Shown here one piece after another: positions 29,930-38,593 of a DNA stretch of 64,000 bases. Position numbers and translations under genes: made by a program. This DNA is from Spirochaetia bacterium. GTDB lineage: Bacteria > Spirochaetota > Spirochaetia > CAKZLE01. Under the pieces are notes generated by a model that saw only the letters and a list, made by a program, of their open reading frames with translations, had not been told where the DNA came from and did no database searches. The stretch lies in assembly GCA_963677595.1 (NCBI GenBank), contig OY782041.1:1632001-1696000 (forward strand), given 5' to 3'. Within the stretch, counting starts at the first letter, position 1; the number at the start of each line of letters is the position of its first letter.

Positions 29930-30856
29930 ATGCCCTATGATATCTCGGACAAACTGGTGATCGGCATCGCCTCGAGCGCGCTGTTCGACCTCGGTGAGTC
30001 CGACCGGGTCTTCAGGAACGAGGGGGAGCAGGCCTACCGGGCGTTCCAGCGGGAGCATGAGTCCGAGACCCTGCCGAAAGGGGCGGCGATGCCCTTCATC
30101 AGGCGGCTGCTGAACCTCAATTCCCGGATACCGGGAGTAGAGCCCATAGAGGTGATCCTCTTCTCGCGCAACGATCCCGATACCGGGCAGCGAGTCTTTA
30201 ACTCGATCCGGGATTACAAACTCGATATCACGCGTGGGGTCTTCACGAGCGGTGAGTCCCCCTACCGCTACCTCGACTCGTTTGGCACCTCTCTCTTCCT
30301 CTCCGCCAATAACGAGGATGTGGTCAAGGCCATCGATACCGGCCATGCAGCGGGGACCGTGCTCCGGTCGGTCGTCACCGACGATGATGACTCCTACGAA
30401 CTCAGGGTGGCCTTCGATTTCGATGGGGTGATCGCCGATGATAGTGCCGAGAATGTCTACCAGAAGAAGAACCTCAATGCATTCCAGGAGTCTGAGATAA
30501 GCAATGCCGCGGTCCCGCACCCACCCGGGCCCCTTCGCGAGTTCTTCGTCAAGCTCGCGAGGCTGCAGCAGGTCGAGCAGGAGTACCGCCTGGTCGACCC
30601 CTCCTACCGGAAGAGTATCAGCACGGCCATCATCACCGCGAGGGGAGCACCTGCGAACGAGCGTGTCGTTACCACCCTGCGTTCATGGAACGTCATGGCT
30701 GACAAGACCTTCTTCCTCGGCGGGGTCGAGAAGGGGAGGATCCTCGACATCTTCAGGCCTCACATCTTCTTCGATGACCAGCTCACGCACCTCGAACCCT
30801 CCTCAGGGTTCATTCCTTCGGTGCATATCCCGTTCGGCCGGATCAACAAACACTAA
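29930..30856 (+). CDS. 5'-nucleotidase (PF06189-type)
   Basis: SSALFDL, SRN.P.TG.R, RVAFDFDGV, TARGAP, PHIFFDDQ. Confidence 0.88.
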   Translation: MPYDISDKLVIGIASSALFDLGESDRVFRNEGEQAYRAFQREHESETLPKGAAMPFIRRLLNLNSRIPGVEPIEVILFSRNDPDTGQRVFNSIRDYKLDITRGVFTSGESPYRYLDSFGTSLFLSANNEDVVKAIDTGHAAGTVLRSVVTDDDDSYELRVAFDFDGVIADDSAENVYQKKNLNAFQESEISNAAVPHPPGPLREFFVKLARLQQVEQEYRLVDPSYRKSISTAIITARGAPANERVVTTLRSWNVMADKTFFLGGVEKGRILDIFRPHIFFDDQLTHLEPSSGFIPSVHIPFGRINKH

Positions 30857-30886
30857 GAAAGTAGTATGACTGTAGTTGAGAAGTCA

Positions 30887-32431
30887 TAGATGCTATCCTA
30901 TTCTTGACGGAGAATGGGAACCGGTGATCGTGTAATGATCTATTGTGATGGATGCTGGACTGCCAGACATACCTCAATGAGAAAGATACACTGACCGGTC
31001 ATCGAAGACTACTTGGAGACTTCCCGGGGAATTCTCCCCGGGAATGATCTCAATAATAAAAATGAAGGACATCTACGCACTTCCTGTCATAAAGCTTCCC
31101 AACTATCCGTTAATTTTATTTTGAGGAGGCTGCCATGATAGACAGACCTTTACGATTGACGGCAACCAGGATCATCGGCTTGGATCTTTCCAAGAAGACT
31201 CTGGTTGGGTGTATGCTGCTAGCAGAAGAAGGGTTCATGAAGAATCACTTCTTCAACGAGAAGATGAATGCTCAAGGACGTCAGCGACTCGCTGAACGGT
31301 TCAAAGCAGGAGATGCGATCTTTATGGAGGGAGGGACATCTTCCTTCAACCTCGCACGGTATCTGCTGAAGCACACCGAAGCAGACGTGTATGTACTCAA
31401 CCCCATGAAACTGCATATCATCTTCGAGTCGATCTGCAAGACAGATCGGCAAGATGCTGCAAAATTGGCTAAGTATGCACGGGATGCCCATCCTGAGAAC
31501 TGGGTACTGGTTCCCATCCCGACTGAACAGGAATCTGCTGAGCGCTCAGTAGTCAAACTTCACATCGCCTATGCTCAGTATCGTACGAAGGTCATCAACA
31601 AGCTTCATGCGGTATTCACGGGAATGGGGTTCCCTGACCTGAAGAAATCGGATCTGAAGGATCCTCGCAAGCGACGGGCCTGGGTGGAGACCCTACTCGC
31701 CGAGGAGATAGCTCTATTCAGTGCAGGGCTCCTGCTCGAAGAGCTTGAATCATTGGAGTCGCAGATGGAACGTATTCATGAGAAGCTCAAGGAGATCATT
31801 CTCGCTCATCCACGAGAAGCTCTTTCCTGGCTCTCGATCCCTGGCATCGGAGACATCACGGCTGTAACGCTCATTGCCTTCCTCGGTAATGGAGACCGAT
31901 TCTCTTCTGCTAACCAACTGAGGAACTATATCGGTCTCATCCCGAAGAAGGATCAATCTGGGACGGTCGATAAGCAGCTCGGGGTCTCTCGTCACGGGTG
32001 TATGCCGATCAGGAGGCACATCATGCAGGGAGCCTGGGGGATCAAGAGCTTTAGGAGAGATTGTTCTCTTACTCGGTACTGGCAGCGTCTTGAGAGCCGA
32101 CGGAAGCTTGGTCAGAAAGCATCAGTTGCCATTGCTAATAAGATGCTCTCTATCGGATTCGCTCTGCTGAAGAACGGTGACATCTACCGGATGCCTGACG
32201 GGGAACAGTATCTGTTGAAGAAACTGCAATACTATAAACTTGAAGCTCTCGTCGGAACCCGATCCTGGCAGATTAATTCCGATAAGAGCTCAATAACCAG
32301 CTAAAGCCAATCTAACGGTTTTAGCCTATCACTAACCACCTCCCCACGCAAGTCCTTATTTTTAAGGTCTCGGAGAATTGTGTCTATTTGAATTGCCAAA
32401 ACTTTCTTGTTTATACCCCTTGACATCTACA
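30887..32431 (+). mobile_element. IS110-family element (ends inferred)
   Basis: Transposase plus non-coding ends; CA dinucleotide at both junctions flanked by TAGATG / CATCTA; TTGACA near the right end. Confidence 0.7.
31135..32304 (+). CDS. IS110 family transposase (DEDD recombinase)
   Basis: GLDLSK, ME, KTD..DA, IPGIG, GL.P...QSG catalytic-Ser region, A.VAIANK. Confidence 0.92.
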   Translation: MIDRPLRLTATRIIGLDLSKKTLVGCMLLAEEGFMKNHFFNEKMNAQGRQRLAERFKAGDAIFMEGGTSSFNLARYLLKHTEADVYVLNPMKLHIIFESICKTDRQDAAKLAKYARDAHPENWVLVPIPTEQESAERSVVKLHIAYAQYRTKVINKLHAVFTGMGFPDLKKSDLKDPRKRRAWVETLLAEEIALFSAGLLLEELESLESQMERIHEKLKEIILAHPREALSWLSIPGIGDITAVTLIAFLGNGDRFSSANQLRNYIGLIPKKDQSGTVDKQLGVSRHGCMPIRRHIMQGAWGIKSFRRDCSLTRYWQRLESRRKLGQKASVAIANKMLSIGFALLKNGDIYRMPDGEQYLLKKLQYYKLEALVGTRSWQINSDKSSITS

Positions 32432-32447
32432 GACAAATAAAATAGAA

Positions 32448-32471
32448 CAGCCGCCCTTCTCAGGGCGGCTG
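32448..32471. terminator. Hairpin downstream of the pilus locus
   Basis: CAGCCGCCCT-tctc-AGGGCGGCTG; T-rich tail on the minus strand. Confidence 0.7.
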
Positions 32472-32491
32472 CAGGTATATTCACAGGTTGG

Positions 32492-32983
32492 TTAGTTAGC
32501 AATTACGGATAACGTCAGGATGTCTGAATACCTTGAGCTCGTCTCTGCGAGACTGCCGGCTTCATAGGCGATGGCAATATTGCCAGCCATGGTATAGTCA
32601 GAATTCTGGACATGTCCTACACCATGATCGAGTGCTACAACTTCATCACCGAACAGAATGTCGTATCCGATGGTCTCATCAGAATCTGATGAGGTCAGGT
32701 ACGGCGTGCCTTCTGAACTTGAGGCAGCATTCCTTGACGAAATCTCTACAGTATAACCAGTAGTTTTCGTTGAATTCTCTTTGATAGTTCCCACTTGGGT
32801 CCTACCGCTTTCGCTGTCGAGAGATACGCTGGAAGAAAGGGTATCATTCAGTATTACAAGGTCAGCTCTCTCAGGTACATAACCACGGAGTACAAGAGTT
32901 CCTGATGTAGCGGCAACGGTCGTTCCCAGAAATAAAACCATGTAAAGAAGAATCACTAACGAGGTTTTCATTTTAGTACGCAT
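32492..32983 (-). CDS. Pilin-like secreted subunit
   Basis: Signal peptide, GTLVLRG.V first strand, C-terminal YSD.LTLSV motif. Confidence 0.6.
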   Translation of the reverse strand: MRTKMKTSLVILLYMVLFLGTTVAATSGTLVLRGYVPERADLVILNDTLSSSVSLDSESGRTQVGTIKENSTKTTGYTVEISSRNAASSSEGTPYLTSSDSDETIGYDILFGDEVVALDHGVGHVQNSDYTMAGNIAIAYEAGSLAETSSRYSDILTLSVIAN

Positions 32984-33192
32984 CTTGGTACCCCTTCGTG
33001 TGTGATTTTTCTTACTTTTTACGTAGTTTATTTTTTAATGGTTTTTTGCAATATCTGTTTTACTATCTACTTTTTTCTATTATTCCCTCCCTGTGTATAC
33101 CTGCATACATAATACACCTGCAGGGGAAGAATATCTAGGTAAAAATGTGAGAGTGCTGAATAATTTATTACAAAAACAATAATGTAATCAGG

Positions 33193-34245
33193 TCAATTCC
33201 CGATGATGGTGAAAGTCAGGTAGTCGTAGTAGTCACCGGCAGGAACGAAATCGATCAAGGAACTGATCTGTATATCAATGGGGTAGCGGTCACCGGGTGA
33301 AGATGATGCATCAGCATACGGAACAAGGGAAGCCGGACTACCTGGTGAAAGCGGGTGCCAAACGTTTTCAAAAAAGAACTTATACTCCACATACGCATCA
33401 ACGGTCTCATGCTTCAGTTTGCTGCCGTAGGTCGACTGTACTTCAATGGAATAAGGGACCAGGGCTTCGATGATCAGATCGGCTTGTTGGACCTCATCTG
33501 GATCGAGCGTCCCGAAATTCATGGAATAGGGTGTGGAGGTGAATTCAAAAGCGCCGTCATGTTCTATGATCGAGGAGTTGATGGAAGCAGCGGCGTAGGT
33601 GTTGTAGGAAATGACCTGTGAATCGAGCAGTTCCAAGTTAGGCAGGTCTGCAAAGGTGAGCTCAGTCTGGGGGCCGTCCCCGGCAAGGTCAAGCAGTCCC
33701 CAGAGTTCCACGGTGAGTGACTGGTCTGAATAGGTGCCGGTGCTGATATACTGCCCAGCTGGAATCTCGAACTCGAATGAACTGTTGGCGGTGAATTTCC
33801 TTGTCTGTCCCCCGACATAGATCGTAAGGAGGTCATTCAAGGATGTCGCATCTGCCTTCGACATCAGGACGTTCCTTGAGCTGATGGAGTCATACAGCTG
33901 GTAATTGATGCTGTAACCGCCCTGGGAGATAGTTCTTTGGAGATAGGACCCTGAATCCCCTTCAGAGACCCCGATGACCAGCCAGTCGACCGGGATCGTC
34001 TTGTTCTGGTTGACTCCATTGATGGTGATCGATTCATTCGTCGTGATAGTGATACTACCGTCGTAATTATCAGCTGAGATATACGTAGACAAGTTCTTGA
34101 AGGTCGCTATTGACCCCACATACTGTTGTGCTGACACAGATAGCGTGGATATGATAAAGAGAAGAATTATAACGCTTCTGATACCTTTGACAGTTCTCAT
34201 CAGGACTCCAAATACAGACATACTGTCTATTTTGCTGACTGACAT
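33193..34245 (-). CDS. Two-domain pilus tip adhesin-like protein (spore coat U/Csu type)
   Basis: Signal peptide; NYQLY, IPAGQ...GTYSD, MNFG, AGDY.D.LTFTI; start may be 34200. Confidence 0.7.
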   Translation of the reverse strand: MSVSKIDSMSVFGVLMRTVKGIRSVIILLFIISTLSVSAQQYVGSIATFKNLSTYISADNYDGSITITTNESITINGVNQNKTIPVDWLVIGVSEGDSGSYLQRTISQGGYSINYQLYDSISSRNVLMSKADATSLNDLLTIYVGGQTRKFTANSSFEFEIPAGQYISTGTYSDQSLTVELWGLLDLAGDGPQTELTFADLPNLELLDSQVISYNTYAAASINSSIIEHDGAFEFTSTPYSMNFGTLDPDEVQQADLIIEALVPYSIEVQSTYGSKLKHETVDAYVEYKFFFENVWHPLSPGSPASLVPYADASSSPGDRYPIDIQISSLIDFVPAGDYYDYLTFTIIGN

Positions 34246-34384
34246 ATGGAATGCTGTTATTACCTTGGCAGTATACTTATTATAATTAGTATAATAACCT
34301 TACAAATGAAAAGAAATAGGCTATTATGATCAATTCCCAAAATAACTGCAGTTTACCTTGGGATCCTCTGTTCCTTAGGACTCT

Positions 34385-35386
34385 TCAGTTCCCAATGATC
34401 TCGAACACCAGGCTGTCTGAATAGTCACCTGCGGGTACCCACCCGAAGTCCCCGATGGTGATCGTAAGCGTATGGGCAGTCCCGTATGCATCCGTAGGAG
34501 GAGCATTGGAGATGAGCATGACCGGGTGCTGCGCTGCAGAGAGGTCGCATACCATACCGTCGATGTCGACGGTATAGGGGATGGTCTCTGTCACGGTCGG
34601 GTTCACATGGCTTAAGACACTGCCGTTATAGGAGTAGGCTGAGATGGAGTAGATGGAATTGGAGCATGCTATCGCATCCGCTTTTAGTACCTCCCCGGGA
34701 TAGATCACCCCGAAGTCCATACTGTACCCCTGTGAGTGCGGGTCATACGCTGAACCCATGTCGACGATGCATAATCCGATGCTGTGGTCGATTGTGATGG
34801 TAAGAGGCATGGTTACGTTATCCTCAAGCTCGGAATCATGGTAATAGGAGATCTCGATGGAGTCGGTGTAGGTCCCTGACGGAATATTCTGGCCTGAGGG
34901 GATCTCGAGGATGAAGCTGTGGCTGTATGTCTGGGTTATCGAAGACCTCCCCCCGATCTCAGAAGATGGGAACCGGTAGTAGAGGCAGTCCTCAAGAGAG
35001 GCAGCAGTCTCAGCATCCCGCAGGAGGTTCCGGTCTGTATCATTGTCATAGAGGTTGTAGTGGATGATCTCATTCCCCATGGTGTGAACAGCGTAGCGGT
35101 CGGAGACCGCTCCGCTGTTCCCGGCAGAGAAGTAGACATAGGTGTCTGCCGGGTCGGCAGTCTTCGGGTTATACGCCGTGTTATAGGCTCCCCGCTGTAT
35201 GACCAGCTCGAACTGGGCATGGTCGGTGAACTCCCGCATGTATGTCTCGGTGACCGATACCGGGTACTCCGCTATATCATAATGCTCGAGGATACCGTAG
35301 GCTGCCAATCCCTGCATTGCCAGCAGGAACACGCCGATGAAAATCGCGAGGTGTAGGTGTTGTCTGATTCGTCTGGTCTGCATCAT
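34385..35386 (-). CDS. Two-domain pilus tip adhesin-like protein (paralog)
   Basis: Signal peptide; YNLY, IPSGQ...GTYTD, MDFG, AGDYSD.L.F. Confidence 0.7.
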   Translation of the reverse strand: MMQTRRIRQHLHLAIFIGVFLLAMQGLAAYGILEHYDIAEYPVSVTETYMREFTDHAQFELVIQRGAYNTAYNPKTADPADTYVYFSAGNSGAVSDRYAVHTMGNEIIHYNLYDNDTDRNLLRDAETAASLEDCLYYRFPSSEIGGRSSITQTYSHSFILEIPSGQNIPSGTYTDSIEISYYHDSELEDNVTMPLTITIDHSIGLCIVDMGSAYDPHSQGYSMDFGVIYPGEVLKADAIACSNSIYSISAYSYNGSVLSHVNPTVTETIPYTVDIDGMVCDLSAAQHPVMLISNAPPTDAYGTAHTLTITIGDFGWVPAGDYSDSLVFEIIGN

Positions 35387-35394
35387 GTTTCCTA

Positions 35395-37869
35395 TTAGAA
35401 CTGCTTGTATTCGATCGGGATGATGATATCCTTCGCCTGGAAGATTCCCGTAATCCCCGACGGGATCTCAAGAGTGAACTCTATGCCGTCCCCGGCATAC
35501 AGCGTGACGATGTGGGTCCCGCTGTGGAGTCCGTAGATCTCAAAGGTCCCGTCGTTATAGGTAAAGAAGAATTCGGGGAAATCATCAGGTCCGAGGACTG
35601 CTCCCTGTTCCAGTACATCACCGGAATAGAGTGCTACAGGGGTCCCGTCAGAGAAGAGCATCCTTCCCTGGACCGTGACATTGGCATCCACCCCGATCTT
35701 GACAGTCCCGGCTTGGTGGTAGGCAGGTCGGAAGGTATAGCTGTCTGAACCTATCTCGAAGCCGTCGGGGATCTCGATCGGCTCTATGACGATGGCATGT
35801 TCGGTGAAGGAAGAGAGGCCGTTGATCACGGCGGCACCAACATTATCGGTCCTTCCTTTGTAGGAATTTCCGCTGGGGTTCACCCCAATGACCAGACCTG
35901 GGATCTGTACTTCCGGTGCGACCAGGACAAAGGAGTCGCTGATCGGTCTTGATACCCCGAACAGGCCATCGGCATAGGAGAAGGCGGTGTCCAGCCCAAG
36001 GTCTATCGTGTATACGGAGGAGCTCCCTGTACGGTTCATCTTGAGGTTTGCATCAAGGAGGAAGTCTGAATGCTTGATGTCGGCACTCAGGTTCGCTGAA
36101 TCCGGCAGGGGATCGTCAATGGTCAGGTCGCTCATGTTCAGCCCGAGGGACAGGTTCCCGTTCAGGTTCGTGGGCGTGTAGCTGGCATTCACCGTATTGG
36201 ATCCATCAAGGACATCCTGGTCAGCGCTGATGGAGAAATCAGCGTTCCTCGGGGAGTAGTTCGCTGCTATCTTGAAGGTCGGATTGTAGCTAAGTGAGGT
36301 ATCCCATGCTCCTGTATAGGATGCGGTCACCCCGAACTCTCGGGAGAGTCTCGCCCTCAGGGAGAGAGACAGGGAGGGGTTCACGACAGTACCGTCCTTC
36401 TCGAAGGTGATCCTGCCGGTGGTACTAGCGGAGACTGCTCCGAGGATAGTCTGTCCATATGACCCGGAGAGTTTCCAGGTGTTCGTCTGCGATGCCGCAG
36501 TGTCTGTGTTGCTGAAGGATGTGTAGTGGTCACTGGTATAGGTCCCAGTAAAGGTGTAGGCCCTGTTCACCAATGAGTTGGCATCCACATGGCGGTAGTT
36601 CAGCGAGGCAAGAAGGCCGAGATTCTCATCTGCAGTACGGCTCGCTGCGGTATTGAGTTTGAAGTTTCCAAGATTGGCAGCCCATACAGTAGAAAGCCCG
36701 ATGTTCTGCTGGTTTGTGCCTGCCTGGAAGAAGTATTGCCCGCTCATGTGGTCGCTGATCCCGAAGGTCTGCATGCCGAATACCTCGGGCCAGGTTGTGA
36801 GGTCCCGGTCCTTGAATCCCATACCGAAAGCGTACTCGGTCTGTCCGGGAGGGGTGAGTGCATTGTCATATGCGAACAGGAACTCCTCTGCAGCGACTTC
36901 CTCCCCGTCGGGATCCGTCAGCTGGATCTTGAAATCATTGACGCCGTTGTTGAAGTAGAAGTCATTGATGGTGTACATACCGGCGTTCATGTCAACGGCC
37001 TTGATCCTGCGGTTGTTCAGGAAGATGTTGACCAGGACGTTGTCTTCCGGTACGAGGAAGGAATGGGTGTAGTTAGAATAACTCTTCCGCTTGAAGGAGT
37101 TGGCATAGTTCCTGGAGATGACTGCCCCGAGATAGGCTGGAGAGCTCTGGTTCGGTGCAGCATCATAGGTGATATCGCCGAGCATCAGCCGAAACGGGAG
37201 GTCTACCCAGTCCTTTAGGAGGCGTGCATAGCCGAACGAGAAAGAAGTATCAGAGAACAGCGATGTGGTGAGCCTCGATTCAAGAGTCCAGCCGGAGAAG
37301 TTGAGGGAGGGTTCGAGGATGAAGCTTATGGGGGTCGATATCTCGAAGCTGCTGCTGTCATAGCCCATGGTGATCGACCCGTTTGAATAGATGTTGGTGT
37401 ACATACTGAACCTGCTCGGTTCGATCTCGGGGTATATAAGCGGGTCTTTTGCACCCAACAGCGATATATCCTGGCTCTTGGTGTTCTCCGGCGGGATGAA
37501 CACCTCGATGAGCAGGTCGAGCATGTTGAAGGTCACGATGACAGGGGCATCCTGCAGGTCGGCTATGGCGACCCACTGCTCGGGGTTCTCGGTGAAATAG
37601 GAGAGCTTCTCCTCCGAGATTCGGTCAGTGAGGAAGGATGCAAGTTCAACGATGTCGACCTCGGTATCCATCTCCTCCATCGGCAGGGAGTTGATCTCGC
37701 CGACATACCTCCCGTCTATGAGCAGGGGAAGATAGATCTCCTCAGGAGTGAAGGTAAACTCGAACTCCTGTGCAAATAGAGAGGTGGGTATTACCATTAA
37801 GAGGATAGCTGTTAACAGTAACGAAACAGTATGTAGATGCGCAGGCTTATCTGATGTTCTCCATTTCAT
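35395..37869 (-). CDS. Fimbrial usher-like outer-membrane protein
   Basis: About 820 aa, beta-rich; LGDI, V.IFLN.......AG.Y.I.DF....G.N, RPISDSF.LV, V.GR....DG.P; follows the chaperone gene; start uncertain. Confidence 0.8.
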   Translation of the reverse strand: MKWRTSDKPAHLHTVSLLLTAILLMVIPTSLFAQEFEFTFTPEEIYLPLLIDGRYVGEINSLPMEEMDTEVDIVELASFLTDRISEEKLSYFTENPEQWVAIADLQDAPVIVTFNMLDLLIEVFIPPENTKSQDISLLGAKDPLIYPEIEPSRFSMYTNIYSNGSITMGYDSSSFEISTPISFILEPSLNFSGWTLESRLTTSLFSDTSFSFGYARLLKDWVDLPFRLMLGDITYDAAPNQSSPAYLGAVISRNYANSFKRKSYSNYTHSFLVPEDNVLVNIFLNNRRIKAVDMNAGMYTINDFYFNNGVNDFKIQLTDPDGEEVAAEEFLFAYDNALTPPGQTEYAFGMGFKDRDLTTWPEVFGMQTFGISDHMSGQYFFQAGTNQQNIGLSTVWAANLGNFKLNTAASRTADENLGLLASLNYRHVDANSLVNRAYTFTGTYTSDHYTSFSNTDTAASQTNTWKLSGSYGQTILGAVSASTTGRITFEKDGTVVNPSLSLSLRARLSREFGVTASYTGAWDTSLSYNPTFKIAANYSPRNADFSISADQDVLDGSNTVNASYTPTNLNGNLSLGLNMSDLTIDDPLPDSANLSADIKHSDFLLDANLKMNRTGSSSVYTIDLGLDTAFSYADGLFGVSRPISDSFVLVAPEVQIPGLVIGVNPSGNSYKGRTDNVGAAVINGLSSFTEHAIVIEPIEIPDGFEIGSDSYTFRPAYHQAGTVKIGVDANVTVQGRMLFSDGTPVALYSGDVLEQGAVLGPDDFPEFFFTYNDGTFEIYGLHSGTHIVTLYAGDGIEFTLEIPSGITGIFQAKDIIIPIEYKQF

Positions 37870-38593
37870 ACGTAGCACTCAGTTGGCCTTCTTTCAGGCC
37901 TTCGGGCCATGGAACAAGGAAAATTCGTCGCTGCCCCGCCAGGATGTTCTCACCGGCGAATCCCTTCAGCTGATCTGCAGAAAGGGTCACCTGGGATGTC
38001 ACGCTACTACCGGATTTGGAGATGACGGTCACTTCCGGCTGGTACATGATCTGGTGTGTGTTCCCGTCATTCTGCATATCGATGGCAATGAACTTATTAC
38101 CGTTCTCATCCACATGTGCCTTGACCGATTTTAGCTTCAGGTTGTAGTCGAACTCATCAGGGACCACGTACATAGTACCTCGGTAGACAAGCAGGATGTT
38201 AAGGTTCGCACCTTCCTGGGCCTGGTCGAAGTTCAGCGGGAGCTGTTCAGCCTCGATCCTGAAGGGAAGTTCAGTATCGACAGAAGCAGGACCCCTCCAC
38301 TGGACACGTACAGTCTGATACGCCCCTGGTCTCACGACGACCTGCTTGGGATAGATGTAGAAGTAGTTCGAAGCATCCTCAAGCGTCTCTGTACCGTAGA
38401 GATCCATCTCCCTGGTCATAGCACTGATCTGGACACCAATGGTCTTGTCAGTATCGTTGACCACCCTGAACGTCTGCCGTGCGCCGGTCCCTGTAGGATC
38501 GAAATCCTTGGAGATAGGCGTAAACTGGAACGCAAAAAGAGCAGGGAGGATGCATATGAATAGTACGAGCAGGAATAATTTTCTTTGTTTCAT
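37847..38593 (-). CDS. Periplasmic pilus chaperone (PapD-like)
   Basis: Signal peptide; YP.Q.V..PG..Q.VRV.W, E..FRI.AEQLP, MYV.P, N.GNTH. Confidence 0.82.
   Translation of the reverse strand: MKQRKLFLLVLFICILPALFAFQFTPISKDFDPTGTGARQTFRVVNDTDKTIGVQISAMTREMDLYGTETLEDASNYFYIYPKQVVVRPGAYQTVRVQWRGPASVDTELPFRIEAEQLPLNFDQAQEGANLNILLVYRGTMYVVPDEFDYNLKLKSVKAHVDENGNKFIAIDMQNDGNTHQIMYQPEVTVISKSGSSVTSQVTLSADQLKGFAGENILAGQRRIFLVPWPEGLKEGQLSATYEMENIR

Follow-up and report, generated by a model that had tools for sequence, protein, structure and literature searches.

The window, i.e. the whole stretch of 64,000 nucleotides that was analysed, carries on its plus strand at 30860–32440 an element of the IS110 family with a size of 1581 bp, as defined by five genome copies and an empty allele. 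Limits of 30861–32441 fit equally well, and the core is an A run. The recombinase gene (31135–32304, +) encodes 389 amino acids and is preceded by a ribosome site, GAGGAGG, at 31123–31129; the non-coding ends comprise 275 bp on the left and 136 bp on the right. The product matches PF01548 (E 6e-11) and PF02371 (E 9e-18), and by alignment to ISCro4 and IS621 and by motif positions it has the DEDD RuvC domain (D17, E65, D104 and D107) and the Tnp domain with the catalytic serine (S275). As in the IS110 family there are no terminal inverted repeats, a short core is present at both ends and the targets are defined. The element sits in sense between the stop codon of an upstream 5'-nucleotidase gene and a terminator-like hairpin of the host. 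The left target arm (30854–30857, +) includes this stop codon and is followed by the left copy of the core (30858–30860, +), reading AAA. The right copy of the core (32439–32441, +) is AAA in 12 of 12 loci and is followed by the right target arm (32442–32450, +), with the terminator-like hairpin (32447–32472) 3' of it. Beyond the element, a minus-strand cluster of secreted proteins at 32492–37878, among which one protein carries a spore coat U (SCPU) domain, stands behind an 827-aa usher-like protein and presumably resembles a chaperone-usher pilus operon.

The five full copies, found by genome search, have a DNA identity of 96.5–100%, and the genome has in addition a fragment of the left end and a distant IS110 element. 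All five copies agree from about 30857 to about 32441 and differ only outside these limits, and the tips are the same in relatives with 63–87% protein identity. A contig from the public run X1 represents the empty allele, in which 30859 is joined to 32442 with a single C between them, giving a net insert of 1581 bp, and at this site run X2 likewise skips a net 1581. The core of the empty allele is AAC, with C at the third position versus A when occupied, a change that might represent conversion of the mismatched core base. Genomes G001 and G005 have orthologous nucleotidase 3' ends lacking the element, in sequence too diverged for placing the crossover, and in G002 the contig stops before this point. 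Run X1 contains, beside the empty allele (30859/32442), the occupied right junction of the same site (32412–32460), a further right flank that is absent from the five copies of the genome, and one element copy interrupted at 30921. In a close relative (L008, G001:C4) the left end and the first 38 codons are intact and the rest is truncated; its left core is AGG, and the core bases there appear to be derived from the target. The left-end fragment, located outside the window (G000:C1:253783-253963) and 89% identical, differs in its target guides, has a degenerated left tip and is cut within the donor hairpin.

A structured RNA is predicted for the left end. The region 30905–31135 folds with z = -3.7. 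In the consensus fold of 12 aligned left ends, a 5' hairpin precedes a long stem that is interrupted by an internal loop; then come an unpaired segment, a hairpin, a further unpaired segment and the third hairpin. Changes on both sides occur in 15 of 57 pairs, a count as high in 0 of 500 shuffles and reaching 1–6 in slid controls, in a comparison where kinship among the sequences can raise the count above that of shuffles and the fold was derived from the same alignment. The 5' hairpin (30896–30919, +) has 10 pairs, two of them with two-sided changes. It is followed by the target-binding stem and internal loop (30922–31004, +), drawn from the same 12 sequences, and by the donor-loop hairpin (31016–31051, +), where 10 of 15 pairs have two-sided changes and of which a hairpin noted earlier at 31021–31044 is a part. 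The third hairpin (31062–31090, +) has no two-sided pair changes and carries a 9-mer (31068–31076) in the top of its stem and its variable loop. A search of Rfam gave nothing at family threshold and three weak chance matches. The preliminary description was right about an IS110 element with a structured non-coding left end and an RNA of the bridge kind, and wrong about its ends, crossover and guides.

The internal loop has the variable columns of the RNA on both of its strands, and these contain the putative target guides. The 5' target guide (30935–30944, +) is complementary to the top strand of the core and right flank, and the 3' target guide (30978–30985, +) has the same sense as the left flank and core; its last base is the one with which the left end begins, in a handshake-like manner. 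At the present locus the right target arm matches the 5' guide at 6 of 8 positions with one base of slip, and the left target arm matches the 3' guide at 3 of 4 positions with one additional wobble. Eighteen loci were read (6 own and 12 fetched), with the right flank in 12 and a usable left flank in 15; the guide test was done without L038, L039 and L043, which are copies of other loci, and L045, which has no left end, and c5 was omitted from the left test. With one base of slip allowed, the 5' guide matches the right flank at 65 of 96 positions versus 51.5 after permutation (p 5e-5), and without slip the values are 47.5 and 37.4 (p 0.011). When one locus was used for each of the eight distinct 5' guides, 2–17 of 40320 permutations reached the score. 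The 3' guide (30978–30984) matches the left flank and core at 51 of 60 positions versus 39.4 (p 5e-5), on four variable bases and only six distinct guides from loci that are kin. Arranging the guides of the same loci in the IS621 order gave no signal (42.5 versus 43.2 permuted, p 0.69).

The matches on the right side are loose, 4–6.5 of 8, and one base of slip is needed in 5 of 12 loci, the present one included, so the core may be 3 or 4 bases long. A stricter pattern predicted from the guides is found in the genome at 15 sites with at most one mismatch and 234 with at most two, indicating that the guides by themselves are insufficient to single out the sites that are used. Right flanks fold as hairpins (z < -2), often terminator-like, in 5 of 12 loci versus 5% of 150 random 45-mers. 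For ISPpu10 a target stem-loop is described as aiding the insertion element (10.64898/2026.03.19.712850), and for IS621 half-matches are described as sufficient (10.64898/2026.08.31.748434). One copy, c4 (G000:C1:144899-146900), has target guides unlike those of the other four, and its flanks fit them; judged from sequence, it is a natural case of reprogramming within one genome.

Two short segments on either side of the donor-loop hairpin are candidate donor guides. The 5' segment (31008–31014, +) is complementary to the core and left tip at 30859–30865 in 7 of 7 positions, and the 3' segment (31055–31060, +) has the same sense as the right tip and core at 32436–32441 in 6 of 6. Both are unpaired in the fold and, like both element tips, nearly invariant in the near clade, so that the donor pairing rests on the comparison across clades. 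There, the 3' segment changes along with the right tip in the sister clades, and the 5' match is weak in the G097 and ISLin1 elements.

An imperfect subterminal inverted repeat has its left arm at 30867–30886 (+) and its right arm at 32416–32435 (+), which are complementary at 13 of 20 positions here and at 13–18 of 20 in 13 loci, with changes in both arms in L036 and L042. The repeats of IS1111 are near-perfect over 11–13 bp and lie 7 and 3 bp from the ends; the repeat here is imperfect (13 of 17), and in L036 13 are perfect. The right arm holds a copy of the 9-mer and a -35 box, TTGACA (32420–32425), and a -10 box, TAGTAT, lies at the other end (30862–30867, +). By the coordinates, a join of the true ends should read TTGACA-17-TAGTAT. 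Of 13 right ends, 12 have TTGACA as the -35 box and one has TTGCCA; of 16 left ends, 11 have TAGTAT and five TAGGAT as the -10 box. A circle and promoter activity at the joined ends are predicted. Contigs of runs X1–X5, from which rare molecules drop out, contain no circle junction, a result that carries no weight either way. A junction promoter firing into the left end had been proposed before, with the same -35 box, which stands, and with the -10 box TATTCT, which is kept in 3 of 10 and falls; the join suggested then indeed places TATTCT after a spacer of 18 bases, but it is not at the true ends. The left end also has a promoter-like TTGAGA-17-TATTCT at 30876–30904, which was discarded since it is unconserved and three such sites were found where 2.0 are expected by chance. 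A 7-bp inverted repeat at 30865–30888 overlaps the repeat arm and the predicted transcription start, and is absent from most relatives.

Taken together, the locus very probably holds an IS110-family element of 1581 bp that is present in five copies and has an A run as its core. For its left end a bridge RNA of about 220 bases is predicted, which carries guides in the IS1111 order to both flanks and to both tips, and the element would move via a circle with a predicted promoter at its junction. This reading draws on the observed ends and empty site, the covariation of guides and flanks, the covarying stems and the catalytic residues. In the proposed course of events, excision would join 32440 to 30860, and transcription from the resulting promoter should start near 30874. 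The linear copy might be supplied with RNA by host read-through from the 5'-nucleotidase side, and such a supply is reported for IS621 (PMC13626964). The recombinase would bind the left-end RNA, the 5' guide of the target loop would pair with the top strand to the right of the core and the 3' guide with the bottom strand to the left, and the donor segment would pair in the same way on the circle junction. Strand exchange is expected to proceed as in IS621, by the DEDD residues and the serine through a Holliday junction, with both DNAs turned round: the internal loop is approximately two-fold symmetric, so that a reversal of both loops is equivalent to the chemistry of IS621 acting on an inverted target and donor. 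The bottom strand should then be exchanged first, the handshake base would come after the 3' guide, and the short guides and the A run would tolerate mismatches and one base of slip.

The same ends and target guides could also be combined with tips that are recognised mainly by the protein through the subterminal repeats, as in the seekRNA view, and there would then be no need for the donor matches. The repeats, with 13–18 of 20 positions complementary and two double-sided changes, the weak 5' donor match in the sister clades, and the finding that a short target-only RNA is enough for ISEc11 (PMC11187229) point in this direction. We nevertheless find it improbable, because the donor segments, which are unpaired and near-invariant, fit the junction at every position (7 of 7 and 6 of 6), and because the 3' donor segment varies with the right tip between clades.

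Less probable still is that the loop of the third hairpin serves as an extra guide for the right inverted repeat and the -35 box. Its likeness to the right end of the same element reaches at least 6 of 9 positions in 12 of the 14 loci (9, 9, 8, 8, 9, 7, 7, 7, 4, 8, 6, 6, 5 and 6 of 9), and the chance of such a 9-mer is about 0.04: when the left end was shuffled 3000 times, 4.4% of the shuffles had a 9-mer in common with the final 30 bases of the right end. The 9-mer has a further copy at 32179, and 74 occurrences on both strands of the genome. The loop does not covary with the right end, the likeness falls to 4 (L036) and 5 (L042) of 9, no counterpart is present in the RNAs of G097, ISLin1 or the mid-clade that were read, and shared ancestry explains the likeness.

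The model of the preliminary description, in which the element ends at the CA sites 30885–30886 and 32430–32431, the 9-mer at 31068–31076 acts as donor guide and a conserved target accounts for the outer bases, 25 on the left and 10 on the right, can hardly be upheld: the CA sites and the identity of the 9-mer to 32422–32430 are there in the letters, with 9 of 9 in three of the five own copies, but the outer bases are missing from the empty allele as well, which refutes it. All five copies remain identical 25 bases further left and 10 further right than the CA sites, full copies thus continuing 10 bases beyond the supposed right terminus at 32422–32430, and the copies, the relatives and the empty allele agree on limits other than those proposed. 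The left CA is kept in just 11 of 17 left ends read, and the empty target suggested, GAGAAGT-CA-GACAAAT, has 0 occurrences in the genome. As for the 9-mer as donor guide, its match to the right end ranges from 4 to 9 of 9 over the 14 loci with no covariation: the right-end changes in L035, L036, L040–L042 and L044 are not mirrored in the RNA, and in two own copies the 9-mer is changed in the RNA only. Both outcomes that the preliminary description itself named as refuting it, other boundaries in further copies and a 9-mer that fails to covary with the element end, are observed.

The layout with target and donor guides in the IS1111 order upstream of the gene is found also in relatives. The G097 element is 36% identical, with 21 full-length matches, and in 14 distinct loci its 5' guide is complementary to the right flank and its 3' guide equals the left flank and a GAG core. 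It is always inserted (L050–L065) at the terminal inverted repeat of a dispersed repeat of about 145 bp, which is also empty many times. ISLin1 of Leptospira, the closest named element with 28% protein identity, has the same reversed layout in three loci, across which the 3' guide varies together with the left flank. In a plasmid record (L071) two ISLin1 copies stand in tandem with one 36-bp repeat unit between them, and the repeat is a target too. ISHvo9 of Haloferax, also among the closest named proteins, has 29% protein identity, and five of five haloarchaeal ISHvo9-like loci, single copies with ends set by comparison and registers by eye, have the same layout with guides that vary with the flanks. 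The base or bases next to the 3' target guide on its 3' side are identical to those opening the left end, in 7 of 7 loci and in 5 of 5 haloarchaeal ISHvo9-like loci, in registers placed by eye. A second IS110 element of the genome (L029, G000:C1:2615576-2616691) is 46% identical and has a related left-end RNA with a 5' donor segment fitting its own left tip; its right end was not recognised within the 420 bases read.

In a tree of 25 recombinases the protein groups with ISLin1 (support 91/92), and ISEc11, ISShdy1 and L076 form a side of their own (100/100), with the spirochaete clade outside. The tree has no rows for IS621, IS110 and ISEc21, and long branches meet in it; the branch that would make the clade sister to IS1111 has a support of 93/90 between long branches, and no sisterhood is claimed. 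Of the traits of the IS110 group the element has the long non-coding end upstream of the gene, and lacks the left-guide-first order and subterminal repeats that are absent or of 2–3 bp. From the IS1111 group it has the top-strand guide before the bottom-strand guide, and lacks the non-coding region 3' of the gene and a recombinase of 330–350 aa in a tight cluster. By sequence criteria the element is therefore a member of the broad IS110 family with what appears to be an IS1111-type RNA at work, outside the definitions of both groups.

The system itself is already known, and the reversed order with an upstream RNA is a variant of it. According to the text of PMC11187229, the tested IS1111 elements have the top-strand match first and ISEc21 the opposite, a few IS1111 elements have upstream regions, two repeat-bearing exceptions are located in a deep IS110 branch, and ISLin1 is classed as family IS110 in the source data. 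The published split, with upstream RNAs left-guide-first and downstream RNAs right-guide-first, rests on its upstream side on ISEc21 and IS621, and it fails here and in two named lineages. This bears on the proposal that the RNA has moved between the ends, made in PMC11208160, where many IS1111 RNAs are also said to have multi-loop donor segments. A reversed order in an upstream RNA is not stated, and the RNAs of ISLin1 and ISHvo9 are not described, in the running text of the literature that was searched (10.1101/2024.01.24.577089, 10.1101/2025.05.14.653916, 10.1101/2025.10.25.684509, PMC12288879, PMC13604230, 10.64898/2026.10.21.760802 and 10.64898/2026.08.14.744561). Of these, 10.64898/2026.10.21.760802 reports 86 models, many unlike IS621, and the present layout may be among them.

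A wider interpretation is offered tentatively, as one that we hold to be quite possible and stop short of favouring. Guide order would follow lineage and not RNA position, and a deep branch with the spirochaete clade, ISLin1, ISHvo9-like elements and perhaps ISMch4 would retain at the left end both long subterminal repeats and an RNA of the IS1111 type; from this condition the RNA of IS1111 would have shifted to the right end. The recombinase would be turned round relative to IS621 with the bottom strand first, and the branch would constitute an untapped programmable class with 3-base, non-CT cores. For mining and reprogramming of IS110 elements, the IS621 layout should not be assumed; copy c4 offers a natural reprogramming within a genome, and the bottom-strand-first order is a testable prediction.

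Compared with the elements at hand, ISLin1 and ISHvo9 share the left-end RNA and the same reversed order, and differ in their cores, GAG and GTG, and in their targets. With IS621 and ISCro4 (PMC11208160, PMC11208158) the element has in common the recombinase with DEDD and serine, a core at both ends, and a long left end with a 5' hairpin, a target loop, a donor segment and a junction promoter, the latter predicted here. The protein likeness is distant (E 1e-14), the core is an A run and theirs CT, and the repeats have about 17–20 bp versus 2–3 bp. The guide order is reversed in both loops relative to theirs, the left guide coming first in the IS621 sequences of PMC11208160 as read by eye, and the donor guides here are located outside any closed internal loop. 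The handshake bases of IS621 are described as lying 3' of the 3' guide and reading the donor next to the core (PMC11208158), and the base after the 3' target guide, being equal to the start of the left end, would be the same feature on the other side. With ISEc11 and the other IS1111 seekRNA elements the likeness lies in the top-strand guide being 5' of the bottom-strand guide (PMC11187229), and in the natural ISEc11 copy L066 the donor guides also flank a hairpin in an open loop, the order of the four guides being the same, in its right end. In the IS1111 group, too, the subterminal repeats are long, their right arm contains the -35 box and there is a junction promoter, the last being a prediction for our element. 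The differences are that the spirochaete RNA is encoded upstream of the gene and the IS1111 RNA downstream, that the protein has 389 aa versus 330–350 and is 26% identical, outside the tight cluster, and that the repeats are imperfect and, with a right extension of 3 beyond the repeat, would be 12 bases apart in the predicted circle, as compared to 10 (7+3) in IS1111.
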